DNA from: an uncultured virus (IMG/VR IMGVR_UViG_3300042526_000204)
Lineage: Duplodnaviria; Heunggongvirae; Uroviricota; Caudoviricetes
DNA length: 20,000 bases
Direction: 5' to 3' (one strand)
IMG/VR virus record: IMGVR_UViG_3300042526_000204
Of the stretch, positions 1-20,000 are shown in pieces. How positions within the stretch are numbered: the first letter of the stretch is position 1; each line of letters begins with the position of its first letter. The position numbers were made by a program, and so were the translations under genes. Below the pieces are notes generated by a model, which had not been told where the DNA came from, made no database searches, and was given only the letters and a program-made list of their open reading frames with translations.

Positions 1-1702
1 TTTGAGCTTGTATATTACCATCAGTATCTAAAGCAGGAATAAGAAAATTACCTTTATCATCTACTTTATAAGTTTTACCATTTACAGGATAAGTTGCTGT
101 TTTAGAATACTTAGCATCTCCTCCTGGAGGTACTAATCTTACATTACTATTACCATCTGGAGTTGTATAGACAGTATTCATATTTTTAGCATTATGAAGA
201 TTTAAAGATAAACTACCTCCTAAATCATTCAAAACTTTACCAATAGCTGTTGTAGCTTTAGCTCCTACTCCTGCTTGAACATTATCTGCTGTGTAAGTTA
301 TAGGTACATTTTTCTGATATCCAGGTTGTTTAGAATAGATATTAAACAACCTAGCTTTTCCATCTTCTGTTTTAGGATCAATAGCAACATATCTTTTTTT
401 ACCTTTTTCTAAAATACTAATAACAACATTTCCTTTTGCATCTTTTTGTCTACCATTTGCCCATGTAGTGTAGTCTTTATCTACTTCTTGTTGAAGTTTT
501 TGTTTAGCAAAAAGTTGTTTAAACTGTTCTATATATCCTTGACTATCAGGAATACCTGCAAAAGCAGAGTAATCTCCAGCACCAATTTGTTTTCCTAAAG
601 CTAATCTTTCTGCTTCAGTTTTAAGATTTAACTTATTAGCTACAACAGTAAAAAGTTGATTTTTAGAATTTATGATTTCTTTCTTAGTTGTGTTATAAGA
701 ATTATAATCATGAGTTAAAGGATGTTTATCTGTGTCTTGAAAACTAAATCCTACAGGTTGCTCTAATTCTCTCTCTCTAATACCAGCTGCATACTCTTGA
801 TTACCAGCTTCATTCCTTAATTTAGCATTACTAGTTTTAACATCTGTAATACCATATTTTTCTTTAGCATAATTAAGTTCTCTGTAAAAAGCATTGTTTT
901 TAGTGTCATCAATAATAGGAACCCCTTTTTCATCAAACAATGGTTCTTGATAACCAGGTACTCCTAAAGAATTTAATTGTTGCATTGCCCCTAATTGATT
1001 TGGGTCTGCTACTAAAGCTGCTCTATATTTTGATTTTAATTTAGCATCAGTCCAACCTTCTGTACCTCTTTCTCCTTTAATTTGCCAAAGACCTTTGTCA
1101 TAATCCCAAGAAACACTTTTAACTTTACCTACAGCTTCTTTAAGAATATCATCTATAAATACATCAGTAGGTTTCTTTTCTAATAAAGCCTCCCCAGTAA
1201 AAGTATTATAAGTATTTGGATTTTGATAATTGGTCCCTTTAAAATCATCTAACTTTTTAGCTTTTAAAAGTTCCCATTGTTGAGGAGAAATCTTGTTACC
1301 TGCTTTTTCTGCCTGTTTTTTAGTTTCTTCTTCCCAAGCATTATATGCAGCAAGATTACCTTGTATCTTAGCTACCTCTCCCATTTTCCAATCTGAAGTA
1401 ATCCTTCTTTTAAGATCTTCTATTTTAGGCATATAAGAAGCGGCATTCATAGCATCTCCATAGATACCTGAACTAATGTCTCCTACTTGATTTGTGTAGC
1501 CACTTATAATTTGTTGTAATCTAGGGTCATCTACTTTTAAACCTTTTGCTTCTAATAAAGCATTTAGTTCACTGTTAGATTTTGCAGTTTCTTCAACTTC
1601 TTTATCTTTTTTAGCAATAAGTTGCCCCATTAACTCAGAAGGAGCATTATACATAGCATCATCTAAGAAAGTAATATCTGCACCTTTATAAAACTGTCCC
1701 AT
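1..1702 (-). CDS. Putative virion cargo/ejection protein (crAss-like cargo 2 position), truncated by the window edge, at least 567 aa
   Basis: Not in the ORF track. Translated by hand from the ATG at 1702, 2 bp after the upstream TAA (TAATCATG): MGQFYKGADITFLDDAMYNAPSELMGQLIAKKDKEVEETAKSNSELNALLEAKG... The frame stays open to position 2 (...ALDTDGNIQAQ). The function is inferred from its position after the muzzle and cargo-1 genes. Confidence 0.75.
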   Translation of the reverse strand, partial: MGQFYKGADITFLDDAMYNAPSELMGQLIAKKDKEVEETAKSNSELNALLEAKGLKVDDPRLQQIISGYTNQVGDISSGIYGDAMNAASYMPKIEDLKRRITSDWKMGEVAKIQGNLAAYNAWEEETKKQAEKAGNKISPQQWELLKAKKLDDFKGTNYQNPNTYNTFTGEALLEKKPTDVFIDDILKEAVGKVKSVSWDYDKGLWQIKGERGTEGWTDAKLKSKYRAALVADPNQLGAMQQLNSLGVPGYQEPLFDEKGVPIIDDTKNNAFYRELNYAKEKYGITDVKTSNAKLRNEAGNQEYAAGIRERELEQPVGFSFQDTDKHPLTHDYNSYNTTKKEIINSKNQLFTVVANKLNLKTEAERLALGKQIGAGDYSAFAGIPDSQGYIEQFKQLFAKQKLQQEVDKDYTTWANGRQKDAKGNVVISILEKGKKRYVAIDPKTEDGKARLFNIYSKQPGYQKNVPITYTADNVQAGVGAKATTAIGKVLNDLGGSLSLNLHNAKNMNTVYTTPDGNSNVRLVPPGGDAKYSKTATYPVNGKTYKVDDKGNFLIPALDTDGNIQAQ

Positions 1703-1704
1703 GA

Positions 1705-4700
1705 TTATGTAAGTTTAGATTTTTGTTGTTTTAATAACTTTTCAAATTCTGCTCTAGGAATACTAACTTTTTTTCCATTTTCATCAGTGTATACTATATC
1801 CTTATTACTTAAAGTACCATCATCTTCTCCTTGTACATAAGTCCCTGATTTTTTCTGCATATTCCATTTCATTTTACTCTCTTTCATATCATTAAGGTCT
1901 TTACCAGTCTGCATAAGACCTTCAGCAAATTGGTTTCTTCCTTTACCTAAAGCAGTGTAGTAAGCATCCTTAGCAGCTTCATTAGCCATAGCAGCATCAT
2001 ACTCTCCTTTACCTTTAAGTTGATCTGCATTCATAGCTACACCTGATTTCTGTACATCAATACCTGAAATCTGTTGAGCAGCTCCTGCACTAATTTCTGC
2101 TATCTGTTGGTTTAAAGCAGTGTCATAAAGCCAATCCATACCTCTCATTTGGTTTACTCCTCTAGCAGAATTTCTACCTCCTCTTTTACCTCCTCTAGAA
2201 GTAGAGGTAGCTTTTACTATAGCTTGAGCTTTACTAACTTCAATTCCTTGTTTAGCATTGTCAAGAAGTTTCTGAGACTCATCTCCAGCATTTTTATAGA
2301 CATTAGTATGAGTTATATCACTTGCTCTTTGTTCTCCAGCAGTTTTAATACCTGCAGTCATACCTAAATAGTTACCAAACATTTTAGTAAGGTCTCCTAC
2401 ACCAGGTATGCTTCCCATAAACTTACCTGCTTTACTTTGCTTTTTTTCTCCTTTAGGAGTTCCTACTTGACCTCGAGTATAAAAAGCAGCATCTTCTTCT
2501 GCATCAAAACCAGCTTCACCAGGGTCTTCTCTAAAGTCTTCTTGCAGAAATTGTTCTCCTTCTTCTAAATTCATACCAAAACCTCTCACAAAACCTGGGG
2601 CATTTTCTTTGCCTGTACTTACTATAGGGTTTACATATCCATCAGGTGATTTATCTTTATTAGCTGCTAACCAATTTTGAGAAGCTTTATAAGTAGCTGG
2701 TCCAAACATCTTACCAAAACCTTTAGCATTATTTGCTATACCTATATCACTTTGAATAAAGTTCATATCCATTACACCACCAGGATTTAACTCATTGTAC
2801 TTAGCATAAAAGTCTTTAAACATATCTGCATTATATCCTTTACCATATACTATACCTTCAGGTGGAGTTCCTGAATAATATTTCATAACTCCTTTACTTC
2901 CTGTACCATAACCATACTCCATAGAATCTCCTATAGGATTATCTTGTAAACCTGCCATACCTGTACCAAAAGCTGCTACCATAGTATCAGCCATAGCTTG
3001 CATATTGTTTACTTTTTCTTGAAAGTCTAAATCAGCCATTTCTTCTTTTTCAATAGCCATCATCTTTCTCTTAGCAGCATTCTTTACAGCTTGATCTACT
3101 AAAGCTTGTGAAGCAATCTTTTCAAGATTAGCAGTTTGTCTTTCTCTTGTAGCTTTTCTTTCAGCTAAAGTCTTGTTACCTACCTTAAGTCTATCAGAGT
3201 ACACTTTAGTCCCTTCTTCTACATCTTCTCCTACTTCTAATGGAATACCTCCTTGCTCATGAGCAGGTCCTTCAAATTCTCCTACTTGTCCTTGAGGTGT
3301 TTCATACATCTCTCCTCCTTCAACTTCTACATCAGCTTGAACATTGTTTATACCATTAGCACCATATTGGCTATTATTATCTCCAGCAGTTCCTGCATAA
3401 GTATCTCCATTATTTGCACTTTCTCCAGGTTTTAAAACATTAGCATTTATACCTCTACCTACAAAACTTTGAGCAGCTCCTCCTACAGCAGCTACTATAG
3501 GTATCCAAGGATTAGACATAGCTTTAGCTTCTACTTTAGCCATTTGAATATTATAATCATTCAAAGCTTCAGCAGGACTGACTATATAATTAGACCCAAC
3601 ATTACTGGTACCATTAGCATACTTCTTTCTAGGGTTCATTTTTGTTTTCATAATTCCTTGGGAGTTAGTTCCATAACCATGTTTTATTAATCCATTTTGA
3701 GTATAGTATTCAGCTAACTCAACATTAGGTATTTCAATCTCTTCTCCAGATTGTCTTCCATATTTAACAGCTTCTCTAGGTGTTAATTTACTTAACAACC
3801 CAAGTTCATCTTGAATAACACTTGGAGATACAAAAGCATTACCTTCATTATCTGTTGAGTACTGCATTAAATGAGTTGTCTTTGAACCATCTTCATTTAT
3901 CATCATAGGATAATCAGAAGGATTTAAAGCTCTTTGTACAAAGTTTTTATCTTTGTTTCTTTCAGTAATAACTTTAGACATTAACTCATTTTCAAAAGCA
4001 AGTCTAGTAGGAGGATCTCCAATACCATTATCTCCAGTTCCAAAAGCTAATTCTTCTACAGGTATCTTACCAATTAAATTAGGTTTTTTACCATCATCAG
4101 GTAATGCTGTTCCTGCATAAGCTCTAACTTTTTTATAAAAAGTATCTGCCTTTTCAGGATCTGTTTTAGAAAAATCATAAGAGTCATATATTTCTGTTTC
4201 TCCTAGTGCATTCTTTTTATAAGAAACTCTACCTAACATAGTAGCTGCTTGTATAGCAGGGTCAGTAGAAATCATTTGTTTTTTACCTGCTGACATTCCT
4301 TGAAAAGCTTGTTCAACTTCAGGACTGTAATCAATATATTGTGTTCCTCCTGAATCTTTACCTGTTCTTTTCTGAGCATTCTTTACACTCTTAATTAAAG
4401 CTTCTTGTATATCTGGAGTTAAATCTTGAAGACCTAACTTATTATCTTTGGTTGCAATAGCAGTAAGAAACTGAGCAGCTTGGTCTGGCATTAGAGTTCC
4501 TAAAACTTCTCTAGTTACTTTAGTTTTTAAATCTGAAGTAACAGGTACATTGTTTTGTGCTTTCCATTTTTCTAACTGAACTGAATTAGACACAGGAACA
4601 TATTTTACTCCTTCTTCATCTCCAGGCTTTTCTACTTTTCCTCTTTTAGGATTAGTGTTGTAATAGACTACTTTAGATTTTTTTGTTTTACTAGATTCTT

Positions 4701-5292
4701 CTTTTTTTGGTAATTGACCTTGTACAGCCCCTGCTACATCACTTAAAGTGTTTGTTGTATTTAAAGTTGCTGCTGTTGTAATAATTCCAGCTTTATTTCT
4801 AGGAGCTTTAGTTATTACTTTATCAAGAACTTTACCAGTGCCTTTCTCAATTATTTTAGTAAGCTTTTGAAGACTTTCTGCTCCTATTCCTACTCCCATA
4901 CTTGCTGCTGCTATAGGGTTAGCTCTTCCTCCTCTACTAGCTCTTTGAATTGATCTACCTACATTTTTTCCTTCTTTTAATACAGCAGGAACTACTTTCT
5001 CAGCTTTTGCTACAAGTTTATTTACTTTGTTTAATCCTTCAATGTATTTATTTGCTGTTCTTATTGCTTTAAGACCTTTACCTGCTTTTCCAATAACAGG
5101 CAAAGCACCTAAAACTTCTAACCCTGTACCTAAAGAAAACAATCCTTCTTTCTTATAACTCCTATATACATCATCATAAGAAGACATACCTGTAGGGTCA
5201 AAAATTTCAAAGATATCTTCTGCCAGACTATCTTGAGTCTTTGACTTCTTATTTCTTGAAGACCTTTTGTTAGATTTCTTAGGTTGTAACAT
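1705..5292 (-). CDS. Putative virion cargo/ejection protein (crAss001 gp45-like core) with a ~547-aa modular N-terminal extension
   Basis: 1195-aa ORF directly after the muzzle gene. It contains VEVEGGE...GPAHEQGGIP...KVYSDRL, which I recognise from crAss-like cargo proteins. It also has Ala/Gln-rich coiled-coil stretches and short hydrophobic Gly/Ala helices. Confidence 0.65.
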   Translation of the reverse strand: MLQPKKSNKRSSRNKKSKTQDSLAEDIFEIFDPTGMSSYDDVYRSYKKEGLFSLGTGLEVLGALPVIGKAGKGLKAIRTANKYIEGLNKVNKLVAKAEKVVPAVLKEGKNVGRSIQRASRGGRANPIAAASMGVGIGAESLQKLTKIIEKGTGKVLDKVITKAPRNKAGIITTAATLNTTNTLSDVAGAVQGQLPKKEESSKTKKSKVVYYNTNPKRGKVEKPGDEEGVKYVPVSNSVQLEKWKAQNNVPVTSDLKTKVTREVLGTLMPDQAAQFLTAIATKDNKLGLQDLTPDIQEALIKSVKNAQKRTGKDSGGTQYIDYSPEVEQAFQGMSAGKKQMISTDPAIQAATMLGRVSYKKNALGETEIYDSYDFSKTDPEKADTFYKKVRAYAGTALPDDGKKPNLIGKIPVEELAFGTGDNGIGDPPTRLAFENELMSKVITERNKDKNFVQRALNPSDYPMMINEDGSKTTHLMQYSTDNEGNAFVSPSVIQDELGLLSKLTPREAVKYGRQSGEEIEIPNVELAEYYTQNGLIKHGYGTNSQGIMKTKMNPRKKYANGTSNVGSNYIVSPAEALNDYNIQMAKVEAKAMSNPWIPIVAAVGGAAQSFVGRGINANVLKPGESANNGDTYAGTAGDNNSQYGANGINNVQADVEVEGGEMYETPQGQVGEFEGPAHEQGGIPLEVGEDVEEGTKVYSDRLKVGNKTLAERKATRERQTANLEKIASQALVDQAVKNAAKRKMMAIEKEEMADLDFQEKVNNMQAMADTMVAAFGTGMAGLQDNPIGDSMEYGYGTGSKGVMKYYSGTPPEGIVYGKGYNADMFKDFYAKYNELNPGGVMDMNFIQSDIGIANNAKGFGKMFGPATYKASQNWLAANKDKSPDGYVNPIVSTGKENAPGFVRGFGMNLEEGEQFLQEDFREDPGEAGFDAEEDAAFYTRGQVGTPKGEKKQSKAGKFMGSIPGVGDLTKMFGNYLGMTAGIKTAGEQRASDITHTNVYKNAGDESQKLLDNAKQGIEVSKAQAIVKATSTSRGGKRGGRNSARGVNQMRGMDWLYDTALNQQIAEISAGAAQQISGIDVQKSGVAMNADQLKGKGEYDAAMANEAAKDAYYTALGKGRNQFAEGLMQTGKDLNDMKESKMKWNMQKKSGTYVQGEDDGTLSNKDIVYTDENGKKVSIPRAEFEKLLKQQKSKLT

Positions 5293-5320
5293 CTTTCTTT
5301 AATTTATTAAAGGTTGAGAT

Positions 5321-8300
5321 TTATCTTTCTGATTGTTTTTTATCCAAAGCTGAGAAGTTAAAGATTAATCTTGTATCAGCAAAGTTATCAAATATTAACC
5401 TTACCACCAAGAACTTATCTCTGAAACTTTCTAACTGTGACCAATCCTTATTGTAATCAATAGCACTAGGATTAACTACCTTATCTATGTAATAATTACT
5501 TTGAAGAGAAGCTATATTTTTTAAGAACATAGGTACAGTATGAGCTCCAAAAAGGTTGTCTTGTTTTCTATAATCTTTAAGGTTGTTAAGAGTCCAGTCT
5601 CTTTCATTTCTATCTACTGTTACTACTCCTGGAGTATTACTAGTCTGTTGGAAGAAATAGTTGGTGCTATCATTTTGTTTAGGTGCTAAAGTAAGCATTC
5701 CAGTAGTTTGTAAAGTATTATAGAATACCCCTTTGTTAAAAGTCATATTAGGTTGATCTAAATACTCTTCTGAAACAGGGTCAAACTTCTTAGCTTCAGT
5801 TTGAAATAATATGTTATCCCAAACCTTAGTTGTTAAAGGTGAAGGGTTATCTACATACTCTACAATAAAAGGATAAGTAGTTCCATAAAAAGTTTGATAG
5901 TGATTAGGTCTGTTATGTTTCCATATGTAGTTAGACCCTTGTGGCCAAGAATAAAACTTTTCTTGAACATGCATATAGAAACTAGGAATATAAGGATGCC
6001 AACTTACCCACTCTTGTCTCTTTAAAGAGTAAGACATAGTGTACCCATTGTTTAGAATTTGAGGAACAAAGACTTGACCATTTTCATATTCTATTTGAGT
6101 TACAGGATATGTATTTGTAATTTCTACTTCTGTTCTTTCTATAGTAGAAGTTAAAACATTCTTCATATCTAAAGCAAATTGACAAGGAGAAATCATAAGT
6201 TCACTACCTGGACAATCTGTAGTAGCTAATGTAACTGGTATATTATTCTTATCAGAAATTACTGACCACCCATATTGTTCTAGTCCTGGATTAGTATCAG
6301 GAGCAGTTATTAAAGTTTTGTAAGGGTTAACAAGAAGTTTACTTTTTAAAGTTTCCCAATCTGCTGCAAGAGCTGGAGTAGTTGAAAAATATAAATTAAG
6401 AGGAAGATCATTAACTTCTGATATAGTATAGTTTCTCCCCTTAACAGCAGCTAAACAGTGCATAAGAAAGTTCTTAGATTTTGGAGTAGAAATTACAGGA
6501 TAACATATACCAACAAACTTTTCAAATGTAGAATGTACTCCACTTGCCCCTGTAAAATTATTATAATGAGTTGTGTAAGAAGTAGTAGGTTGTCCAGTAA
6601 AAGACATAAGTAAAGTACTAGTTACTATAGTTTGAGGAATTTGAGGATAAGTAGGAGGAGGTCCTAAAGGATCATTTACATATACTATTATTGTTTTATA
6701 AACATTATTGTAGTAAGGATTTACTTCATCTACAGCTTCATTTACAAAAGAGAGAAGTAGAACTTTACCTCTATCTGCTAAAGGAATTAAACTAGGGAAG
6801 TTTAACCATTTCTCTGTAGAGTTATAAACTTTTTGTGAAGTCCCTGTCCAACCTGAAGGCTCTAATTCATCAGTAATCCATTTATCAAAAGCATCTTCTA
6901 ACTGAGCTAACAATACAGGTTCCATAGTATCATCAAAGAAAGCCCAAACATCCATATCATTAGAAACAGAAACAAACTTAGTAACTGTATCAGTTTTAGT
7001 TTGGTAAGTAGTTTTTTCAAACTTCATCTTACAATCTTCTATACCAATATAATCCCACCCTGCTGCAAGTCTTGTTGCTATTATTTGGGCCATGTTAGGA
7101 AAAATAATAGTCTGACTTCCTTCAGAACAAATCTCATAAGAATTTAAAGGAAGATTAGTTATCTGACTATCTTTCTTAGTAATAATAAACCTTTCTTTAT
7201 TACTATCATAAGTAGATAAGAACCCTACTCCTAAAAGATTTGAGGGATTATTGTTGTATGGATATTCTCTTTTATTAATCTCATAGTATTGATCTTCTAG
7301 TAAAAAGTCCATGTGAGTTTTAAAGTAATTGCTATTACCACTATCACTAATAGGTTGTAAACTTTCTCCATTAAACAAATACCATTTCTTTTCTTTCCAA
7401 GATGGAAATAAGATACCATACTTAGTTTTAGTTCTTGCCCACTTATGTCTATTACCAGCAGAAGAGTTACTATCATCTACCATCTTTCTAGGAGGAATAG
7501 AAAAATACTCTCCTGTTCCAATAAAAGTTATTACATCATTAGTAACTCTTTCTTGGAAAGTCTGAGGACAATGCCATAACCCTTCTTCAGTATGAATATA
7601 AAGATTGTTTTGTACTCTAAAGATATCAGTAATCTCACCTGTCTCAGCTTCCAAATCTTTGTAGTTGTTAGGTAAGAACATTCTAAAGTTATCAGTAAGT
7701 TCTTCTTGGAAAGCTTGTTCTGACCAGTGCCATCTATGAGGAAAAGTTTCTATACAATCTGAACAACAATCATATTCTAAAGCTAAATGATTAAATATTT
7801 TTTGCTTGTTTCTTCTTGTATAATCAGGGTTTATTAGATAAACTTCTCCTGGAGGTATTTGTAAATAAGATCTTCCTCCTTGTCTTTTTTCATCTAAGTA
7901 GGTTAATTTGTTTAGCATGTAAAAATCAAAAGTAGTTGTAGGAAGAAGAGTGGTATCTCTTACATACCAAACACCATGAAACTCCCCATTAATTTCTACA
8001 TGGGTAACACCAGATTCTACTTTCCCTGGAGAATCTATAAAACCTGTAGTACCATCACTGAAACTATGTCTTAATCCCATGTTTACAGCTGACTCAAACC
8101 AAAGATTTACACACTCTCCTAACCATTGAATTTCATCATCTCCAGGATTAGCACTAAATCCTCTTTCATTAAATGAAACAGGGTCAGTATCATACAAAAC
8201 AAAACTGTCTGAAATAGTATCTCTTAATCCTACTTTATACATTTGATTATAAGCCTTACTCCAAGCTTCTGTTTTTACACCTGATAAAGTTAAAGCAACA

Positions 8301-12375: not shown

Positions 12376-12376
12376 C

Positions 12377-12643
12377 TTAGTCTAGTTTATCTGCCAAAGA
12401 TTTATCTTTAGGCATGTTGATTTTAACTGGGTTTTCTTTTTGGAACCATTCTTTAGAAAAGTAATCATACTTAGTGTCATCACTTCCTTGAGGTGTCCAT
12501 TGAATATCATAACTCTTACAAATTATAAATCCATTTTCAATTTCTCTGACTCTGATATTAGTACTTTTCTTTACTATTGTTGCTCCTTCAGGTAGAGTGA
12601 AAGTCTTTTTACCTTCTATCTCTGCATTCATTATTTCTGCCAT
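12377..12643 (-). CDS. Small hypothetical phage protein (88 aa from the likely start)
   Basis: The track ORF starts at 12667, inside the upstream gene. The ATG at 12643 (TAAAAACATG; MAEIMNAEIEGKK...) avoids the overlap and matches the tight stop-start coupling seen elsewhere. It contains IRVREIENGFII. Confidence 0.7.
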   Translation of the reverse strand: MAEIMNAEIEGKKTFTLPEGATIVKKSTNIRVREIENGFIICKSYDIQWTPQGSDDTKYDYFSKEWFQKENPVKINMPKDKSLADKLD

Positions 12644-12647
12644 GTTT

Positions 12648-14075
12648 TTATGCTTTAGTGTATTCAAGAATTAATAAGAAGTCATTGATTGTAATGGCAC
12701 TTTGTGCTTCTTCAAATGTAACATTATTTCTATTAAGCATAATAACACCTGTAGAACCAATTCCAACATTAGAAGTAGCTCTAGCCATAGTAATTGGAAA
12801 AAACCAAGCAGCATCTTCTGTTGTAACACCTACAGGTGCATTAACAGTAACATCAGCTCTAAGGTACTTATCAATGTTTAAATTATGAACAATACCTACT
12901 CCTGCTGGAGCATCTAAAAGACCAGGTACAGTGAAAGCAATTACCTTTCTGTAGATAGGTTTACCATCAATCCAAGTTCCTCCTGTAAGAGCTTCTGTTT
13001 GAGAATAAGAATTATTTAGTTCTATAGGTTTATCAACTCTAATAATATTTGAATTATTATCAATGCCTAAAATTCTTCTGTTGTCTATGGTGATTTTACT
13101 AACACTATCAACACTATTGTTAACATAATAAATATTACCTAATGAATCTACAGTAATATCAAAAACATTTTCGTCTTCGCTTATAGTAGTTAATACACTT
13201 GTAGGAGTTCTTTTAACTACTTTTAATGCCCCACCTACATAAACATTATTTAAAGAATCTGTAGTTATACAATAAGGAAATACTACTGCGGTACTAAAAA
13301 CACTTCTTGCTCCTCCAGAAGTAATCCTATTTATAGTGTTGTTTGTATGACAAGTAAAAACATTACCTAATGAATCTACAGTTATATCTGTAGGATCAGG
13401 ACTTATAATACTTAAAGTACTAGGTGTTCCAACAGAGGTAATTTTAGTAATATTACTTGAAAGTTTATTAGCTGTATAAATATTTCCTGCTGAATCAACA
13501 GTTATAGCTCTAGGTTCGTTTCCAACAGATGCAAAAATACTTGGGTTTCCTGCTGGAGTTATTTTAGTAACAGTATCATCTACAGCACTACAAGTATATA
13601 TATTGTTTAATGAATCTATAGTTATGGCAATAGGTTTATTAATTGTACTAGCAAAAACACTTGAAAACCCTCCTGAAGTTATCTTAGTTACGTTATCCGA
13701 ACCAAAATTACAAGTATAAACATTACCTGAAGAATCTACTACTATTCCAATAGGCTGACTTCCTGTTGTTCCTAAAGTACTTGATGTTCCATCTGGAGTA
13801 ATTTTAGTTACATTATCTGAAAGTCTATTAGCTGTATAAGTATTTCCTAATAAATCTCTAGCAATACTATAGGGTTGAGATCCTGTAGTTCCTAAAATAG
13901 AAGTTGTATTTTCAATAGGTGGTATAGCTACTTCTATTTCATTTGAAATAATGTTAATATTTTTCCCTTCTAATAATGTTTGACCACTACCCCCTAATTG
14001 TTTTTTTGTTTGGTAGTATAAGTCTACTACTAATTGCTCTAATTTCTTTATTCTGAGTAATAACTGCTTTTCCAT
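12648..14075 (-). CDS. Putative fibre/receptor-binding protein: shared leader, 7 NHL/Vgb-like beta-propeller repeats and a C-terminal fibre-tip-like domain
   Basis: 475 aa. Seven ~40-aa repeats (P-x-x-I-x-x-D-S-x-G-N-x-Y...V-T-K-I-T) at about aa 60-332. The C-terminal YSQTEALTGGTWIDGKPIYRKV is a motif common in phage fibre C-terminal domains. Confidence 0.7.
   Translation of the reverse strand: MEKQLLLRIKKLEQLVVDLYYQTKKQLGGSGQTLLEGKNINIISNEIEVAIPPIENTTSILGTTGSQPYSIARDLLGNTYTANRLSDNVTKITPDGTSSTLGTTGSQPIGIVVDSSGNVYTCNFGSDNVTKITSGGFSSVFASTINKPIAITIDSLNNIYTCSAVDDTVTKITPAGNPSIFASVGNEPRAITVDSAGNIYTANKLSSNITKITSVGTPSTLSIISPDPTDITVDSLGNVFTCHTNNTINRITSGGARSVFSTAVVFPYCITTDSLNNVYVGGALKVVKRTPTSVLTTISEDENVFDITVDSLGNIYYVNNSVDSVSKITIDNRRILGIDNNSNIIRVDKPIELNNSYSQTEALTGGTWIDGKPIYRKVIAFTVPGLLDAPAGVGIVHNLNIDKYLRADVTVNAPVGVTTEDAAWFFPITMARATSNVGIGSTGVIMLNRNNVTFEEAQSAITINDFLLILEYTKA
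13080..13898 (-). repeat. Seven tandem ~120-bp coding repeats (beta-propeller blades)
   Basis: Examples: ILGTTGSQPYSIARDLLGNTYTANRLSDNVTKITPDG / TLGTTGSQPIGIVVDSSGNVYTCNFGSDNVTKITSGG / IFASVGNEPRAITVDSAGNIYTANKLSSNITKITSVG. Confidence 0.9.
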
Positions 14076-14553
14076 TTTAGTTTAAATTAAATTAAGTTAA
14101 TCTTATTTTTACTACTCCTGCTGTGTGATATAAACCTCCAACAGGTATTCCTCCTGCTGCAGCTAAAGCATCAGTTGCGTAATCATTTGATAATGGTGCT
14201 GTCATAATAAATTTACTACCTGTGACATCACCTGTTCTGTTTACTGAAAAAGTAGTTGCACCATTATTTGCCCCAACATAACAAAAACCTGTTGTAAGAC
14301 TATTAGAATATATACCTATACCACCATTAGCAGTTATTGAAGATAAAGCAGTTGATCCAGGTTGAGTATTAAAATTTCTTACAGCAACATTTATTGGAAA
14401 TCCAATATTTTCAAAAGTTTTTGCTCCTTCTATAGATTGATTACCAGTTATTAAAACTGCTCCTGCTTGTTGAGTACCACTTCTTACATTACGAAATAAG
14501 TCTACCACTAGTTGTTCTAGTTTCTTTATTCTAAGTAATAATTGTTTTTCCAT
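14019..14553 (-). repeat. 57-bp dispersed repeat at the 5' ends of two adjacent genes (14497-14553 and 14019-14075)
   Basis: Both copies encode MEKQLLLRIKKLEQLVVDL. They match at 50 of 57 nt, and all 7 differences are synonymous. Confidence 0.95.
14092..14553 (-). CDS. Short fibre-like virion protein with the shared N-terminal leader
   Basis: 153 aa. TGNQSIEGAKTF is a tail-fibre shaft-type motif. The C-terminus YATDALAAAGGIPVGGLYHTAGVVKIRL is of a type seen at the ends of phage fibre proteins. The first 19 aa are identical to those of the next gene. Confidence 0.65.
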   Translation of the reverse strand: MEKQLLLRIKKLEQLVVDLFRNVRSGTQQAGAVLITGNQSIEGAKTFENIGFPINVAVRNFNTQPGSTALSSITANGGIGIYSNSLTTGFCYVGANNGATTFSVNRTGDVTGSKFIMTAPLSNDYATDALAAAGGIPVGGLYHTAGVVKIRLT

Positions 14554-14584
14554 AATAATCTTAGTTGATATTAATTATAAATTT

Positions 14585-16894
14585 TTATACACAAGGTACA
14601 TACACAAAGTCAATAGCACCACTTACTTTTCTAATACAAGTTACACAAGAATCTATAACAGAAGATAGTAAAGTGTTAGGTGGAAGATTTACAGCTCCTA
14701 TATCTTCTGAACAAGTTACAACATATATTTCTATAGTCTCAGTTAAACTAGGGTTTAAAATATCAAATTCACAACAACCTGCTTTATCTATACCTTCTCC
14801 TTTTGAAAGAACTTGTGCCATACATATACTAGTTCCTGAAGTTAGTACAAAATCTTGAACCCAAGTTCCATCACATTTATAACCAGTAATTGTTTGGTCA
14901 CTAATAAGATTATTTATGTAAGTATCACAACATAGTTCTTTACCTGGACAGTATCTTCCAAAAATACCATTAATAAATTCAGTGCAATCTGTACAATCTT
15001 TATGCACTCCTCCAATATCTGATGCAGTAATTGTAGCTACTCCTGTATCACTCCAAGATAATATTTCATAACAACCAAGACCTGTTGTAAGAACTAGTGA
15101 TAGTGCTTCTCCTACATTATACACAGGTTGTAAAGCTACTACTTCAATCTCTTCTGTACAACAATTTTGTACTGTGTAATAAAATGTTGTTGGGCATTCA
15201 TTATCTGCTAGACAATCAGTACAAGCATCAGTACCATAATCTACAGCAGGAATAATAAATGATAAATCAGGAAAAGCATAAACAGTACCAGTAGTCATTA
15301 TTGTCCAACACATTCCAAAAGTATCAACAAAAGTACTATCAACTAAAAGACTAGGTAATGTAGTCTGAAGTAATTCTAATGTAGTAAAGCCAACTAATTC
15401 TCCTTCATTACAACAAGAACTTAAAGCTACCACAGTAGGACAATCATTAGCAGTAACACACTCTGCACTTAAACAAGTTGTATTAGGATAAACTGTATCT
15501 ACTTCTACTACATTTGTAATAGGACCTCCTGTTATTTTTGTTACACCCCAGCAGAATCCATTTACATCTACAAAAGTATCTCCTACATTAACTCCAATTA
15601 AAGCTGCTGAAAATACTTCTTCTTCTTCTTCTTCTCCACAACAAGGCTGAATTGTAAAGTTTTGAGGACATGGATTATTAGCCATACATAAAATACAATC
15701 TTCATAAGAATTAGATAAAATTCTAGTTGATGTTACAGCATCTAATGTTGTTGATTCTACACTCCAACAATTCCCATCACTGTCAACAAAAGATTCTCCA
15801 ACAGGAGTTCCATTATTAATAATGATTTCTGAGTAAGCAGGATCACAGCAATTTCTAATAAATAAATTTTCTCCTATACCAATACAAGCTTGAGTAACAT
15901 CTAATGTATAAGAGAATCTAACATCTATTGGAGCAATAGTGTCTCCTTCCTCAGTACCTACAGTCATACCTACAACAAAAAATGTTTCATCTGCAGGTAA
16001 CACACTTGCTAACACAGTTGTTTCTGAGAAACAAACTTTTAAATTATTACTAAGAAATGAATATGGAGCAACAGGTATCACTGTAGATAATGAAATAACA
16101 CCATCTCTAGTTGAGATAGTTGAACAATCAAAACGTGAAACAGTGATATAAAATTTAGGGTTGATTAACTCTACACTGTTAGTTACATCAAGATATGCAA
16201 TACCAGAAATTTTTATTGTATCTCCTATGTTTAAATCTATAGAAAGAGGAATACCAATATTAGCAATTAGACCTTTTGTAACAATTAAATTTCCAAAACC
16301 ATCAACTGCAAATGATGATTCATAGGCTCCATAAGACCAACCAAGACGAGAAGTAAGATTTCCACCAAACATAGATTCTATATTAGGAGAATTATAATTG
16401 TCTGATTCAAAAGCCCCAGACACTGCAGCTAATTTAAAGTGGTCAGGACAAGATCCTCCTCCTCCAGTACCAGGAGGACCTATCTCTCCCTGAAGACCTT
16501 GTTCCCCTTGTTCACCTTGAAGACCTTGCTCTCCCTGTTCTCCTGTATTTCCTGTGTCTCCTTTAGATGCTACAAGTTGCCACCCATTACTAGGTGGAGA
16601 GAAAGAAGAAAAAATTAAAGTAGGAGCATAATAAGAAGAACCATTAAACTCAACTACATCTCCTTCAGAATAATCAGTTCCATTTACCCAAGGTCCAGTA
16701 AAATTCCAAAGAGCATCTATACCATCTGCACCTGGCTCTCCTTGTTCTCCTTGTTCTCCTTGTTCTCCATCTGCACCTGGAACCCCAGGTGGGCCTGGAG
16801 GACCAGGAGGTCCCTGTTCTCCTGAAGAAGGAAAACACAAGCACTGAAAAAGGTGCTCTAATTTTTTAAGTCTGTGTTCAAAATTATTTAGCAT
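14585..16894 (-). CDS. Collagen-like fibre protein with a CBM5/12-like insert and Cys-rich tandem repeats
   Basis: 769 aa. Gly-X-Y runs at 16715-16822 (12 triplets) and 16472-16561 (10 triplets) flank WNFTGPWVNGTDYSEGDVVEFNGSSYYA...WQLVASKG. Four 6-Cys repeats follow at about aa 344-650. Confidence 0.75.
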   Translation of the reverse strand: MLNNFEHRLKKLEHLFQCLCFPSSGEQGPPGPPGPPGVPGADGEQGEQGEQGEPGADGIDALWNFTGPWVNGTDYSEGDVVEFNGSSYYAPTLIFSSFSPPSNGWQLVASKGDTGNTGEQGEQGLQGEQGEQGLQGEIGPPGTGGGGSCPDHFKLAAVSGAFESDNYNSPNIESMFGGNLTSRLGWSYGAYESSFAVDGFGNLIVTKGLIANIGIPLSIDLNIGDTIKISGIAYLDVTNSVELINPKFYITVSRFDCSTISTRDGVISLSTVIPVAPYSFLSNNLKVCFSETTVLASVLPADETFFVVGMTVGTEEGDTIAPIDVRFSYTLDVTQACIGIGENLFIRNCCDPAYSEIIINNGTPVGESFVDSDGNCWSVESTTLDAVTSTRILSNSYEDCILCMANNPCPQNFTIQPCCGEEEEEEVFSAALIGVNVGDTFVDVNGFCWGVTKITGGPITNVVEVDTVYPNTTCLSAECVTANDCPTVVALSSCCNEGELVGFTTLELLQTTLPSLLVDSTFVDTFGMCWTIMTTGTVYAFPDLSFIIPAVDYGTDACTDCLADNECPTTFYYTVQNCCTEEIEVVALQPVYNVGEALSLVLTTGLGCYEILSWSDTGVATITASDIGGVHKDCTDCTEFINGIFGRYCPGKELCCDTYINNLISDQTITGYKCDGTWVQDFVLTSGTSICMAQVLSKGEGIDKAGCCEFDILNPSLTETIEIYVVTCSEDIGAVNLPPNTLLSSVIDSCVTCIRKVSGAIDFVYVPCV
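14945..15865 (-). repeat. Four ~70-80-aa Cys-rich coding repeats (CC...VGxxFVDxxGxCW...CxxC...CP)
   Basis: Visible in translation: NCC..VGESFVDSDGNCW..CILC..NPCP; PCC..VGDTFVDVNGFCW..CLSAEC..NDCP; SCC..VDSTFVDTFGMCW..CTDC..NECP; NCC..VGEA..GLGCY..CTDC..YCP. Confidence 0.9.
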
Positions 16895-16897
16895 GAC

Positions 16898-17368
16898 TTA
16901 TGATTTTATTAGATATTCTTTTCCTTGTTTTATACTATAATGTATAGTTCTTTTATTAGCTCTAGTTAGAATAAAGTTATAATAAAGTTTATTCTCTATT
17001 GGCACTCTATTCTTAGACCAGTGTAATTTATAAACTACACCATCAGTTTCTTCATTAAGACAATACACAATCTTTCTTGTTGCTTTTGCATCAGGATTGT
17101 TTTCCCAAAGCTTCTTAGTCTTTGACCAATTAGGAGGCAACATTGGAATACCATCTTTATTAAATTGTAATTTCTTTTTTACTCCTTGAATAAACAAAGT
17201 ACCTAATCTAGCAGGCATTGTAACCTCTTCTCCTTGTACTGCTTTCTGAATTAAAAACTCCATGTAACCATTAGCTATTGAGATAAAAGAGTTTATCTCA
17301 ACAGGAGTCTTTACTTCTTTAGAATATCTTTTGTAAGAAGTTCTTATATTTAAATCAGTCTTTTGCAT
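16898..17368 (-). CDS. IHF/HU-like DNA-binding protein (crAss-like IHF family)
   Basis: 156 aa, basic. It has a helix followed by QGEEVTMPARLGTLFI (HU/IHF-type turn), then PNWSKTKKLW...IVYCLNEETDG...WSK. An IHF-like gene near the ring and tail tubular genes is typical of crAss-like phages. The start overlaps the upstream stop (TAATG). Confidence 0.7.
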   Translation of the reverse strand: MQKTDLNIRTSYKRYSKEVKTPVEINSFISIANGYMEFLIQKAVQGEEVTMPARLGTLFIQGVKKKLQFNKDGIPMLPPNWSKTKKLWENNPDAKATRKIVYCLNEETDGVVYKLHWSKNRVPIENKLYYNFILTRANKRTIHYSIKQGKEYLIKS

Positions 17369-18069
17369 TATCTTCCTTCAGGTCTTTGTATATCTCTTGA
17401 GTTATTAGCATTGTCTTCTCCTCTTCCTGCAAATATACCAATAATTTCTGCAACACATATATCAATTAAAGGTTCTATTAAATCTCCATCAATATTAAAT
17501 TCATGGTCATAAGCTGGAATACAATCTGTACAATTTTCACAATCATCACACAAAGAAGGAAAATGCATAGCTTCTAAAGGATCTTCAGCAAGAAGTTTAA
17601 TCTTAACTATACCTGGAGATTTCTTTATTGGAAAATACAAATAACCATTCTCAAATAAGAACTTAGGTTTGTTTCCTGTGTATTTATTACCTTTTAAATA
17701 AAGAACACCTTGTCTTGAAACTTCTTCTATTCTCATTCCATTTTCAACAGACATAACAAATTCTATGTAATGTCTATTAGAATCTGTCAATACTCTTGGT
17801 ATAGGAAATTTAGTTCTAAATACATCACAACCTAAATCTCCAAGACAAGAGCATTCATGATTAGGTACTTTAATAAGTTCTACACAAGGTAGTACAGAAT
17901 AGTTCCAATCACTAACTCTTTGTTTTTTCTTAAGTTGTTGAGAAATAAGTTGCATTCTAACTGTGAGAATTTTGTTATAGACATGTCTATCTGATAACCT
18001 AGACTCATCACTAGATACCCCTTTAGAATAAAGGGATTGAATTCTTTCTATAACTTCTCTAATAAACAT
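17368..18069 (-). CDS. Putative tail ring/adaptor protein (crAss-like ring 2 type)
   Basis: 233 aa. It contains SSDESRLSDRHVY, LPCVELIKV...C-x-C...RTKFPIP and ENGYLY...EDP...C...D-x-EFNID...NANNSRD. Size, motifs and position fit crAss-like ring proteins. Confidence 0.65.
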   Translation of the reverse strand: MFIREVIERIQSLYSKGVSSDESRLSDRHVYNKILTVRMQLISQQLKKKQRVSDWNYSVLPCVELIKVPNHECSCLGDLGCDVFRTKFPIPRVLTDSNRHYIEFVMSVENGMRIEEVSRQGVLYLKGNKYTGNKPKFLFENGYLYFPIKKSPGIVKIKLLAEDPLEAMHFPSLCDDCENCTDCIPAYDHEFNIDGDLIEPLIDICVAEIIGIFAGRGEDNANNSRDIQRPEGR

Positions 18070-18071
18070 GC

Positions 18072-18401
18072 TTATTGAATTTTAAAAATTACACCTTGTG
18101 CTAAAGCACTTGCTATTGTAGTGTTTATTGTACTATTTACTTTAACATTAAAAATTACCACTTTAGGATAATCTCCTTCTTTAACAAATGCAGTAGCTTT
18201 CTTTACTGACCAATTTGTAACAGCTCTAATAAAAGTAACTGTAGCAGTTTGTTTTGCTGCAGGTACAGTAATTAACACTAAGTCTAGTTGTTTTCCAATA
18301 CCCTGTTTTTGATCTAATTTTTTACTTTCATTAGGAAAGAAAAGACCAAAAGATAATGTACCTATTGCTTTTTTAAGTCTGTGTAATTCAAAATGTTTCA
18401 T
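18072..18401 (-). CDS. Protein with the shared-type leader fused to a divergent ribosomal L7/L12 C-terminal-like (ClpS-like fold) domain
   Basis: 109 aa. Residues ~38-109 (LDLVLITVPAAKQTATVTFIRAVTNWSVKKATAFVKE...PKVVIFNV...ALAQGVIFKIQ) align by eye with the bL12 CTD ([45 protein letters not shown]...LEEAGAEVEVK). Confidence 0.55.
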   Translation of the reverse strand: MKHFELHRLKKAIGTLSFGLFFPNESKKLDQKQGIGKQLDLVLITVPAAKQTATVTFIRAVTNWSVKKATAFVKEGDYPKVVIFNVKVNSTINTTIASALAQGVIFKIQ

Positions 18402-18403
18402 AA

Positions 18404-19108
18404 CTAATTGTTTAATTGTTGTTTTAAAATATCAGTAACATCTTCTGTATTAAAGAGTTGATAATTACCATCTAAGCCAAGCCATATAATAACTCTTTTA
18501 CTTACCTTAACTCCTACTTGTTCAAGAAGAAGTTGGTAATAAGACAACTGAATTACATAGTGATTTAAAGGATTATCTAATAAATGACTAAAGGGCCCTA
18601 TCATAGTTTTACCTTTATAGTTCTTTAGCAAATCTTTATTAGTCTTGTAATCAGCTATTATATATGATTGTGTTTTAGTATCAAAGAGAATGATATCTGC
18701 TGTACCTGCAAAGAGATGTTTAAAGTGATACATCCTAAGTTCAGCAGCTAGTGGAAGTATATGTTCTGGGACATCTTTCCAAAACTTTACAATAGCTTCT
18801 TCTTGAGGGCAAGAAGGAGAAAGGTTTCTATTAAACTGATAGACTTCTCCAAAGTTATGAACTCTGTGTCCTCTATCTCTAGACTCTTGATTTATGACTC
18901 TCCACTCTTCAAGAATTTCTTCTGTGGTTACTCCAGCTTTAGCAGCAGAGTAAGGGGCAACTAATTCAGCATTAAATGGCTCATAAAAATTAGAAATCAA
19001 CCCTGAGACTGAAGTCTTCAAAGGTTGGTTATCTACAAAATACCTATGCTTTTTTTCTTCAAAAGTCAGGTTACTAAAAGGCTTTTTTATCTTTGTCAAT
19101 AATTCCAT
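18404..19108 (-). CDS. PD-(D/E)xK superfamily nuclease (RecB/lambda-exonuclease-like)
   Basis: 234 aa. It has RGHRVH, E-L-R, AGTADII (motif II), IIADYKT (motif III) and HYVIQLSYY (QxxxY). Confidence 0.85.
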   Translation of the reverse strand: MELLTKIKKPFSNLTFEEKKHRYFVDNQPLKTSVSGLISNFYEPFNAELVAPYSAAKAGVTTEEILEEWRVINQESRDRGHRVHNFGEVYQFNRNLSPSCPQEEAIVKFWKDVPEHILPLAAELRMYHFKHLFAGTADIILFDTKTQSYIIADYKTNKDLLKNYKGKTMIGPFSHLLDNPLNHYVIQLSYYQLLLEQVGVKVSKRVIIWLGLDGNYQLFNTEDVTDILKQQLNN

Positions 19109-19112
19109 GACA

Positions 19113-19120
19113 CAAAGATA
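19113..19120 (-). promoter_or_regulatory. Bacteroidota-type sigma -7 element (TATCTTTG) upstream of the nuclease gene
   Basis: Exact match to TAnnTTTG in the 21-bp intergenic gap, 4 nt before the ATG. The -33 position reads TTA rather than TTG. Confidence 0.55.
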
Positions 19121-19129
19121 ACAAATTAT

Positions 19130-19717
19130 CTAAGAGATTGTAAGCTTGGTAATTGTCTTTTTTACTTCAGTCATAACTTTAGTAAAATTCTTCTTAATAT
19201 CAAACCCTGCTCTTTTAAAATTCTCAAAGAATATAGAGTAAAATTCTATAGCACAACAGAACCCAATAAAGATTAAAGTAAGAGTCATATCCTCATTACT
19301 TATGTGACTTAGTTTAAAACTTCTAATAATAAATACTTTCTCTATTCCCCATACTGCAAGTATTGCACTAGCATAAGTAAAAGCTTTAATTCCAGAAAGT
19401 TTCAATTTGTCAGAAGATATTAAATTTTTCTCTTTTAAACTTGGATCTAATTCTTCAGCTTGTTTTTTCTCTTTCCAAGAAGCAAGGATACCTGTTATAA
19501 AATCTAACACATAAAATGCTACTAATAAATAGACAGCTTTTTCTGTATTAGTCATTGCAGAAGCAACTATGACAGTTCCTGTTGTTACTCCTGTCACAGG
19601 ACTTGATACCATTGTCTTTAAACTAATTCCTAACTTTAAAAAATACTTAGTGTAAAGAGAAAGCCATTCCATAATACAATGATTTACAAGTGTTAAAGGA
19701 TATGTCAGTGTTTTCAT
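19130..19717 (-). CDS. Holin-like membrane protein (phage holin family 4-like)
   Basis: 195 aa with 3-4 hydrophobic helices, LDFITGILAS...ISSDKLK...GIK and IEFYSIFFENFKRAG, and a basic C-terminus. The true start may be the ATG at 19672. Confidence 0.7.
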   Translation of the reverse strand: MKTLTYPLTLVNHCIMEWLSLYTKYFLKLGISLKTMVSSPVTGVTTGTVIVASAMTNTEKAVYLLVAFYVLDFITGILASWKEKKQAEELDPSLKEKNLISSDKLKLSGIKAFTYASAILAVWGIEKVFIIRSFKLSHISNEDMTLTLIFIGFCCAIEFYSIFFENFKRAGFDIKKNFTKVMTEVKKTITKLTIS

Positions 19718-19740
19718 AGCCTTGTGGTATAGTTAAGTTA

Positions 19741-19748
19741 CAAATATA
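19741..19748 (-). promoter_or_regulatory. Bacteroidota-type sigma -7 element (TATATTTG) upstream of the holin-like gene
   Basis: Exact match to TAnnTTTG in the intergenic gap 19718-19750. No clear -33 TTG. Confidence 0.5.
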
Positions 19749-19750
19749 AT

Positions 19751-19888
19751 TTATTTTCCTTGTCCACCATACATCTTTTTATAGTTTTTTGAACTCTTTA
19801 AAGATGATGTTTTTGACTTTGAATGTACTCCAGGTCTAGATACTTTGGAGACTACTTTCTTCTCTGATGTGTTGGATAATTTTGCCAT
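19751..19888 (-). CDS. Small very basic peptide (45 aa)
   Basis: Not in the ORF track. Hand translation: MAKLSNTSEKKVVSKVSRPGVHSKSKTSSLKSSKNYKKMYGGQGK. The start lies 1 bp after the upstream TAA (TAAGATG), and the gene fills an otherwise empty gap. Confidence 0.8.
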   Translation of the reverse strand: MAKLSNTSEKKVVSKVSRPGVHSKSKTSSLKSSKNYKKMYGGQGK

Positions 19889-19889
19889 C

Positions 19890-20000
19890 TTATTTAATTA
19901 TTCGGGTTAATTTTAAAACTAGAATTGCTATCAATAATGTAGGAGTACTTACAATAGCATCCTTATTACTTTCAAATCTTTCAGGTTCTTCAATAAATCT
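19890..20000 (-). CDS. 3' end of an upstream hypothetical gene (partial)
   Basis: This is the only minus-strand frame open across this stretch: ...RFIEEPERFESNKDAIVSTPTLLIAILVLKLTRIIK-stop. It ends 1 bp before the next ATG. Confidence 0.55.
   Translation of the reverse strand, partial: RFIEEPERFESNKDAIVSTPTLLIAILVLKLTRIIK

Follow-up and report, generated by a model that had tools for sequence, protein, structure and literature searches.

Near absence of the CG dinucleotide in the tail module of a crAss-like phage and in several related genomes

The DNA stretch analysed here (the window) comprises 20,000 nucleotides of the uncultured virus record IMGVR_UViG_3300042526_000204 (Caudoviricetes) and is almost devoid of the dinucleotide CG. 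A computed count over the window gives 14 CGs, compared to 510 expected from its base composition (32.3% G+C), which is an observed-to-expected ratio (o/e) of 0.027. Protein-family matches identify the window as a crAss-like phage tail module, and several whole genomes of related phages exhibit a similar deficit. We favour, with roughly even confidence, the view that these genomes have been purged of CG to evade host defences and that the purge is under ongoing selection, with orthodox restriction as its documented part and a context-free cost of CG as the larger part.

Depletion of CG in the window

The CG dinucleotides are located at positions 1441, 2474, 10282, 13172, 13178, 13289, 13517, 13691, 13698, 14178, 14492, 16134, 16347 and 19903. 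A first-pass annotation made by eye had reported exactly these positions and had missed none. It had also described GC, CC and GG as common, and their o/e values of 0.97, 1.08 and 1.08 are indeed normal. Its remark that the 6-kb muzzle gene (5321-11344) carries a single CG is likewise correct, with that CG at 10282.

The 13 open reading frames (ORFs) of the window, all on the minus strand, cover 98% of its length and contain 13 CGs. The observed counts fall below the results of all three null models, each run 200 times. Mononucleotide shuffles of the window yield 510±18 CGs (lowest 465), back-translation of the 13 ORFs with the codon usage of Flavobacterium psychrophilum yields 577±19 (lowest 514), and a random reordering of codons within genes, with the phage codon usage preserved, yields 135±10 (lowest 102). 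The depletion is independent of codon usage and of host composition. Observed and expected counts are 4 and 123 at codon positions 1-2, 1 and 120 at positions 2-3, and 8 and 130 across codon junctions (3-1), in agreement with the earlier statement that the effect extends equally to CGN codons, NCG codons and codon junctions. The depletion is a dinucleotide effect rather than a bias against particular arginine codons.

Among the other short words, there is no excess of TG (1.00) or CA (1.08) in the window, and the words that are in excess are AG (1.55) and CT (1.25). The sites CCGG, CGCG and GCGC are each absent where 13 are expected, while GATC (28 observed, 58 expected) and CTAG (62 observed, 58 expected) are kept.

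CG levels in relatives, hosts and unrelated phages

Tail ring protein 1 served as the marker for finding relatives and for building a tree. The 31 IMG/VR loci that carry this gene (9-21 kb each) all have a CG o/e below 0.45, and for 23 of them the value is below 0.1. Statements about entire genomes rest on relatives such as G008, which is close to the window, rather than on the window's own genome. The CG levels of the 11 whole crAss-like genomes compared are as follows.

crAss001 (Bacteroides phage, MH675552): CG o/e 0.028, 87 CG in 102.7 kb
G008: CG o/e 0.032, 84 CG in 95.5 kb
G005: CG o/e 0.053
FpV4: CG o/e 0.065, 106 CG in 88.3 kb
Fpv1: CG o/e 0.080
G022: CG o/e 0.117
G007: CG o/e 0.137
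G004: CG o/e 0.39
G006 (76% complete): CG o/e 0.42
Cellulophaga phage phi14:2: CG o/e 0.46
Gut phage cr56_1: CG o/e 0.59

Seven of these genomes are strongly or fairly strongly purged (0.03-0.14) and four more mildly so (0.39-0.59), and all 11 lie below the CG level of their hosts. Because the CG level shifts within both sub-clades of the ring protein 1 tree, the trait is labile.

The closest cultured relatives of the window are the F. psychrophilum phages FpV4 and Fpv1, and a 152-kb sample of the F. psychrophilum type strain gives a CG o/e of 1.05. Values for two further Flavobacterium species are 0.91 and 0.85. The window (0.027) and FpV4 (0.065) thus do not carry the host dinucleotide signature, and mimicry of host composition is refuted as an explanation. 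Unrelated phages of F. psychrophilum also keep CG, with values of 0.96 for the temperate phage 6H and 1.56 for Fpv5. The first-pass annotation had reasoned that a CG level matching those of the host and of all related phages would make the deficit an unremarkable trait of the lineage. Related phages do have the trait in common, whereas it is missing from the hosts and from unrelated phages that infect the same host. It is therefore a lineage trait, but not an unremarkable background.

Fpv5 (KU599880) has a bias opposite to that of the window, with o/e values of 1.56 for CG, 0.49 for AG, 0.32 for CT and 0.48 for TA. It encodes its own C5 methylase (PF00145, 1e-46) at 30419-31486, as well as a protein of the dATP/dGTP pyrophosphohydrolase family at 33132-33743. 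Its genome has 139 CCGG sites (27 expected), compared to one CATG (122 expected), no CTAG (122 expected) and no CGCG (27 expected).

Literature searches yielded no published account of CG loss in Flavobacterium or crAss-like phages. In a preprint (10.1101/2025.05.15.652987) concerned with CpG in human-associated phages, the available passages mention neither depletion nor restriction nor Flavobacterium.

New CGs are kept from fixing

Close genome pairs were compared at silent third-codon pyrimidines (NNY) with conserved flanking bases. The counts for FpV4 and Fpv1 (97.2% identity) are given below.

Next base a conserved G: TT 3194, CC 26, CT 10
Next base A, C or T: TT 7069, CC 894, CT 210

Differences between T and C, counted per T, occur before G at 0.107 times the level seen before other bases (Fisher p 2e-22). 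The same ratio ranges from 0 to 0.049 in six other genome pairs, such that the deficit before G is present in all seven (Fisher p from 1e-6 to 3e-38). Differences between A and G in fourfold NCR codons follow the same pattern. By comparison, at the silent NNY sites the loss per C before G exceeds the loss elsewhere by a factor of only 1.5. These results demonstrate that the pressure is ongoing and that new CGs are continually kept from fixing.

The CGs that survive behave like tolerated sites. Fpv1 keeps 87 of 94 CGs of FpV4, and 87 of 105 are kept in the reverse direction, compared to 95.1% conservation for all dinucleotides. Three two-state models were fitted to the two closest pairs, in which 11 of 45 C-bearing sites before G are unshared. 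A model in which CG is hypermutable predicts 39.4 unshared sites and is rejected (P 3e-22). The data are consistent with very uneven selection, in which most positions are strongly counter-selected and a few are harmless. We infer that selection, rather than a bias of mutation or repair, blocks the new CGs; the two other models, which bear on this choice, are considered with the counter-evidence below.

Restriction-site avoidance as a probable part of the explanation

In the mechanism we propose, a crAss-like lineage without methylases would be subject to a directional pressure that keeps CG out through silent rewriting, with AGA used for arginine, NCT or NCA in place of NCG codons, and T rather than C before a codon that starts with G. 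Two layers are suggested by a purge that is even in depth across contexts combined with a loss of sites that is lineage-specific. The first layer, for which the site counts provide direct evidence, would be avoidance of host restriction sites that differ by lineage (CCGG, CGCG, GCGC, GATC, CTAG and GGCC). The second would be a context-free cost attached to each unmethylated CG. This cost might represent a risk added up over the many restriction specificities of a host population whose targets contain CG, asymmetric ones included, or it might stem from an activity that reads CG with little regard to the flanking bases.

Classic site avoidance is evident in the same genomes and differs by lineage. 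FpV4 has no GATC (216 expected), seven CTAG (216 expected), two GGCC (30 expected) and six CTGAAG (21 expected) sites. G006 lacks GATC (223 expected) and GCGC and has a single CCWGG (38 expected), G005 and G004 have zero to one GGCC sites, and crAss001 has one GATC (330 expected), two CTAG (330 expected) and no GGCC (94 expected). Methylase families are missing on the phage side: PF01555, PF02086 and PF02384 each have no match in 13 crAss-like genomes, and PF00145 has none in the eight of these that were scanned for it. For FpV4, the Pfam scan covered the 42 proteins of the replication module.

PF00145 scores above its cut-off in 47 of 81 Flavobacterium genomes. Passages of a 2025 study of F. 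psychrophilum (PMC11837570) count 55 methylase genes across 17 strains, put the average strain at about 10 methylases, and list for strain CSF259-93 the motifs CCGG (the most prevalent), CCNGG, GCSGC, CGCG, CGCAG, GATC, CTGAAG and GTATNAC. Four of these eight motifs always contain CG. Because host motifs often bear CG and host methylases are numerous, a CG-free phage without methylases would escape notice by much of the host arsenal. FpV4 avoids six of the eight published motifs (CCWGG is not avoided and GTATNAC only mildly), although F. psychrophilum may not be the host of the window phage.

Selection by restriction or other defences is the best supported of the causes put forward in the first-pass annotation. 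The exclusion of new CGs, the lack of methylases and the classic site avoidance all agree with it, but the purge is equally deep at CGs outside any palindromic site of 4-6 bp.

Several observations weigh against our reading, beginning with the fact that the avoided words were compared with the motifs of the host of FpV4, which may not be that of the window phage. The purge is even across flanking contexts, with o/e values in the window of 0.030 for WCGW, 0.038 for SCGS and 0.022 for mixed flanks. Likewise, palindromic NCGN contexts (0.021) and non-palindromic ones (0.030) are purged to equal depth. By reasoning, a lone CG with non-complementary flanks lies outside any palindromic site of 4-6 bp, and yet only 11 lone non-palindromic CGs are present in the window where 368 are expected. 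Such contexts, which orthodox sites cannot cover, account for 72% of the CG shortfall. In the weakly purged genomes (0.39-0.59), too, no class of context is spared or hit in particular. Because the purge is equally deep outside palindromic sites, orthodox restriction is insufficient as an explanation. In passages of the survey by Rusinov et al. (2018, PMC6286503), avoidance is found almost only at orthodox type II sites, rarely for type III and not for type I or IIG.

Other points concern individual words and genomes. The dinucleotide GC is as common in restriction sites as CG but is undepleted in the window (0.97). The weakly purged relatives also lack methylases of the PF01555, PF02086 and PF02384 families. 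FpV4 does not avoid CCWGG (58 observed, 22 expected), despite the common CCNGG enzyme that passages on its host describe. CCGG varies independently of the other CGs: there are none in the window, G008 or FpV4 and one in G005, whereas 187 of the 286 CGs of G022 are in CCGG (63 expected) and its other contexts have o/e values of 0.02-0.11. Finally, we know of no reader of CG alone in bacteria.

The two remaining models for the close pairs also count against selection as the blocking force. Selection of uniform strength (S about 2.6) predicts 18.9 unshared sites where 11 are seen (P 0.011), while a model in which CG is rarely created and is lost at the ordinary rate predicts 8.4 and fits better (P 0.20). 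The close-pair data are therefore also consistent with a bias of mutation or repair that disfavours the formation of CG.

The purge of G022 is two- to fourfold weaker in contexts where C precedes CG on one strand. This genome has 29 CTGG/CCAG sites (267 expected) and three CCWGG sites (43 expected), and its codon pairs include 86 cases of NCC followed by GG compared to five of NCC followed by GA. The sparing of CCGG looks like protection by CCGG methylation or the mark of a reader that acts strand-wise on D-C-G. Alternatively, it could be the footprint of a Vsr-type repair that converts CTGG to CCGG.

Alternative explanations

One dedicated reader that recognises the bare CG dinucleotide, or D-C-G on one strand, could act on crAss-like phage DNA. 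It could be a defence or sensor of Bacteroidota hosts whose effect rises with the number of unmethylated CGs, or a phage function (a host-DNA nuclease, packaging or transcription) that must avoid the phage's own CGs. Such a reader would account for a purge that is independent of context, that recurs across hosts (0.028 in the Bacteroides phage crAss001, 0.065 in the Flavobacterium phage FpV4) and that leaves unrelated phages of the same host untouched. The weaker purge of one-strand C-before-CG contexts and the unpurged CCGG of G022 would also be explained, and the weak effect per site, with about 100 sites tolerated, fits dose dependence. However, no CG reader is known to us, and the 84-129 CGs left per genome are hard to square with a nuclease that cuts CG efficiently. 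The depth of the purge differs greatly between close relatives, and so the agent would have to vary as well. In addition, BLAST and hidden Markov model clustering of the ORFs of 11 genomes, from which small divergent proteins may escape, yielded no gene family that all five strongly purged genomes carry and all four weakly purged ones lack. The family that came nearest, a GIY-YIG homing endonuclease, was ruled out by its presence in phi14:2 and cr56_1. On balance, we regard a single dedicated reader as rather unlikely. The more general proposal, that Bacteroidota or crAss-like phages read bare unmethylated CG, perhaps strand by strand as D-C-G, with a penalty proportional to the CG count, which CG-poor genomes of about 100 kb, those of crAss001 and the window phage included, would escape, is also on the doubtful side, although we advance it tentatively.

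The deficit might instead be neutral, if a mutation or repair bias of the phage replication machinery made the changes from TG and CA to CG rare. The better fit of the rarely-created model to the close pairs (8.4 expected, 11 seen), the loss per C before G of only 1.5 times that before other bases, and the independence from context all favour this view. The type of DNA polymerase provides a further hint. All five genomes with a PolA-type enzyme (G008, G005, G022 and G007 with phrog_17, and crAss001 with PolA) have values of 0.14 or less, and four of the six with the other type, phrog_1252 (G004, G006, phi14:2 and cr56_1), have values of 0.39 or more. The association is partial and drawn from lineages that lack independence, and FpV4 departs from it: this phage and Fpv1 have the phrog_1252 type and yet reach 0.065-0.08. 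The bias would also have to suppress one mispair in one dinucleotide context by 14- to 80-fold, and we know of no enzyme that does so. Furthermore, CG is written freely when the choice is forced, as in the 13 CCCGGA words of crAss001 and the 86 NCC-GG pairs of G022 against five NCC-GA, which indicates that CG is able to form and to persist. The higher CG content of imported genes is compatible with both models. We consider a neutral origin improbable.

A cost exerted in RNA appears less probable still; here a ribonuclease of host or phage might cleave or bind CG in transcripts, or CG might harm translation. The window is 98% coding, non-coding DNA of G008 and FpV4 keeps about four times more CG per kb, and strand analysis is uninformative because CG is its own reverse complement. 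Nevertheless, the CG-richer non-coding stretches are themselves RNA genes (for transfer-messenger RNA and transfer RNAs), other intergenic DNA is also CG-poor, and no CG-specific bacterial ribonuclease is known to us.

We give very little credence to the idea, also raised in the first-pass annotation, that C or G is substituted or decorated in the phage DNA, with CG imposing a cost on the modifying enzymes or on replication of the modified DNA. FpV4 does have a ThyX-like gene, a MazG-like gene and a ThiF-family gene with uncharacterised neighbours, but its 42 replication-module proteins, many of them without a family, include no recognisable modification pathway. These genomes have also been assembled many times over by standard sequencing. 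Among the weakly purged relatives, G004 and phi14:2 have in common a long ThyA (358-368 amino acids), and G004 has in common with G022 a gene resembling a deoxynucleoside monophosphate kinase. The ThyA of G004, however, passes the model for true thymidylate synthase (TIGR03284, 179 bits against a cut-off of 108). G006 carries a divergent adenylosuccinate-synthase-like gene whose product is far below the cut-offs for both PurA (138 bits against 402) and PurZ (37 against 300). The notion that weakly purged relatives carry base-modification genes was set aside as a weak lead, and the genes listed here possibly reflect differences in nucleotide metabolism between weakly and strongly purged relatives.

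L134:10116-11285, plus strand: adenylosuccinate-synthase-like gene, G006
L126:9978-11084 and L126:13011-13982, minus strand: nucleotide-metabolism genes, G004

In vertebrates and some Mollicutes, CpG methylation erodes CG because 5-methylcytosine deaminates to thymine, but such erosion through a host or phage enzyme can be dismissed with near certainty as the main cause here: the three full C5-methylase genes of F. psychrophilum (including a full-length HhaI-like one in the type strain), a TG/CA excess of 1.16 in FpV4 and the replacement of most lost CGs by TG or CA, which any transition bias would give, are outweighed by the failure of the hypermutability model, the 87 of 94 CGs kept between FpV4 and Fpv1, a host CG o/e of 1.05, the lack of a TG/CA excess in the window, the lack of PF00145 in all eight crAss-like genomes scanned, and best alignments of the host enzymes to HhaI or HaeIII, with matches to the CG-specific M.MpeI (4dkj) that are weak and partial.

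Gene content of the window

Membership in the crAss-like phages is indicated by matches to the muzzle (PF25731 and PF25729), ring 1 (PF24228) and ring 2 (PF25702) families, all well above their cut-offs, and a match at 24% identity links the window to the tail tubular protein of the gut crAss phages cr56_1 and cr113_1. The closest cultured relatives, FpV4 and Fpv1 (Fipvunavirus), have genomes of about 90 kb. Their ring protein 1 is 55% identical to that of the window, and nucleotide identity reaches about 76% over only about 400 bp. The window contains no tRNA genes and no Rfam matches, and phrog and Pfam scans of its 13 ORFs found no integrase.

1..20000, no strand: CG-purged stretch, 14 CG compared to 510 expected, 98% coding
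2..1702, minus: tail-module ORF that runs off the window, 567 amino acids here, phrog_14670; 1 CG (1441)
1705..5292, minus: tail-module protein of 1195 amino acids, phrog_15413; 1 CG (2474)
5321..11344, minus: muzzle protein, 2007 amino acids, crAss_MUZ PF25731 (5.5e-38) and crAss_MUZ_C PF25729; 1 CG (10282)
11347..12375, minus: tail ring protein 1, PF24228 (3.8e-57); 0 CG
12377..12667, minus: protein of 96 amino acids, phrog_16394; 0 CG
12648..14553, minus: CG island, two lineage-specific genes, probably fibre or receptor-binding; 8 of the 14 CG
12648-14075, minus: beta-propeller NHL/SBBP protein, putative fibre or receptor-binding, in the CG island
14092-14553, minus: ORF of 153 amino acids, in the CG island
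14585..16894, minus: collagen-repeat tail fibre, PF01391, phrog_5073 tail fiber; 2 CG (16134, 16347)
16898..17368, minus: protein of 156 amino acids, phrog_12177; 0 CG
17368..18069, minus: tail ring protein 2, PF25702 (2.5e-37); 0 CG
18404..19108, minus: exonuclease-like protein, phrog_298 (1.5e-33), no Pfam match; 0 CG
19130..19717, minus: holin-family protein, PF05105 (1.4e-10); 0 CG
19903..19904, no strand: sole intergenic CG of the window

A comparison of the window DNA with 401 Flavobacterium genomes returned only short matches (24-102 bp) in 214 of them. These resemble chance or conserved-sequence matches and include no clear spacer, and they assign no host; the idea that spacers of clustered regularly interspaced short palindromic repeats (CRISPR) or protospacer-adjacent motifs are involved was dropped. 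Two segments, 5279-5306 and 10478-10509, have matches of 27-33 bp at 90-96% in a range of Flavobacterium genomes (at least nine and at least six among the genomes listed, respectively), and these look like shared conserved or low-complexity words rather than spacers.

ORFs near the two contig ends of G008, which IMG/VR classes as 'linear', duplicate each other (992-2083 and 90913-91989). The duplicates include a DNA ligase-like ORF (363 and 358 amino acids), ORFs of 102 amino acids and others. The contig probably has a terminal repeat of several kb or is circularly permuted.

Remaining CG dinucleotides

The few CGs that remain lie in structured RNA genes, in probable recent imports, or at spots where the alternative word is worse. 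In the window, eight of the 14 CGs are located within 12648-14553, where the o/e is 0.175 compared to 0.013 for the rest (binomial p 1.2e-5). This island has no nucleotide match among six close relatives. Only the C-terminal 120 residues (354-474) of its beta-propeller protein have relatives elsewhere, the best IMG/VR match being 61% identical over these residues. No donor was found for the CG-bearing part of the gene, as nearly all of the 80 IMG/VR loci kept match only the C-terminal part (from about residue 307). We infer that the island is a recently imported module in which the purge is not yet complete. None of the window's aligned CGs is kept in the six relatives, a comparison that is uninformative at 75-79% identity.

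The leftover CGs of relatives cluster in the transfer-messenger RNA (tmRNA) gene and the surrounding non-coding DNA of G008 and FpV4. Both genes are full-length by Rfam model RF00023, at 74.3 bits for G008 and 58.2 bits for FpV4.

25563-25969 (L120:5563-5969), minus: tmRNA, G008, Rfam RF00023, tag peptide by ARAGORN; holds several leftover CGs
81947-82361 (L002:31947-32361), minus: tmRNA, FpV4, Rfam RF00023, in a stretch annotated as gene-free; holds several leftover CGs

In G005, the leftover CGs cluster in an array of 18 tRNA genes. In crAss001, 13 of the 87 CGs are in CCCGGA words inside genes (for example at 10798, 12368 and 30953). Several of these can be read as Pro-Gly codon pairs, for which the alternatives would create CCWGG, a site present five times compared to 61 expected. 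These observations fit a preference for writing Pro-Gly as CCC-GGA rather than making CCWGG. Words enriched at leftover CGs are those of the tRNA T-loop (G005 and crAss001), TCCGTA (G008), TCCGAA (FpV4) and CCCGGA (crAss001). A dispersed signal was rejected, as the enrichment analysis revealed no longer motif common to the listed sites.

Relation to known systems

GATC-free phages are older examples of restriction-site avoidance. As in that process, described in passages of Rusinov et al. (2018, PMC6286503), short words have been silently eliminated from the genome of a presumably virulent phage. The effect is also more marked in presumably lytic phages than in temperate ones that infect the same host, and the losses of FpV4 partly match the host motifs CCGG, CGCG, GCSGC, CGCAG, GATC and CTGAAG listed in the passages of PMC11837570. 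The difference is that a two-base word is lost here in all 16 flank contexts, non-palindromic ones included, whereas the avoidance in the passages of the survey (PMC6286503) concerns almost only orthodox type II sites, which are 4-6 bases long. The depth differs too, since an o/e of 0.03 over 90-100 kb amounts to roughly 2000-3000 rewritten sites.

Methylation and deamination of CG, as in vertebrates and in Mollicutes with M.MpeI or M.SssI (Wojciechowski et al. 2013, as cited in PMC11282364), also create a genome-wide deficit at all codon positions. In the present case, however, neither the crAss-like genomes scanned nor the host yielded a CG methylase, host DNA retains its CG, and CG is not hypermutable. 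The CpG o/e of vertebrates is about 0.2, and the deficit here is about ten times deeper.

The sensing of CpG by ZAP in RNA and by TLR9 in DNA, as described in passages of PMC11282364, is a dose-dependent reading of non-self, which is how the second layer proposed above would work. Those readers are eukaryotic, and because the hosts considered here are not CG-poor, discrimination would need methylation or another mark. We know of no bacterial counterpart of such CpG reading.

A further parallel involves GATC, which McClelland in 1985 and Deschavanne and Radman in 1991 reportedly found to be counter-selected in enterobacteriophages by Dam/MutH. There, a word is purged because a host repair nuclease, rather than a classical restriction enzyme, cuts it when unmethylated. 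In contrast to the case of CG, GATC is a four-base word with a known reader, and nothing comparable is known to us for CG.

Significance

In the human gut, no phages are more abundant than the crAss-like ones, and relatives of theirs are under trial against fish disease. A genome of 90-100 kb that is almost free of CG is an extreme and easily checked feature, with about 100 CGs compared to 2000-3000 expected, and it means that some force in these infections discriminates CG from every other dinucleotide. CG islands flag imported genes, and CG content may help to bin and classify crAss-like contigs. If the purge reflects the summed restriction of host populations, it would be the most radical case of site avoidance known and would predict the hosts into which a phage can cross. 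If a dedicated CG reader is responsible, it would represent a new kind of bacterial immunity or of phage self-recognition, a prokaryotic counterpart of CpG sensing.

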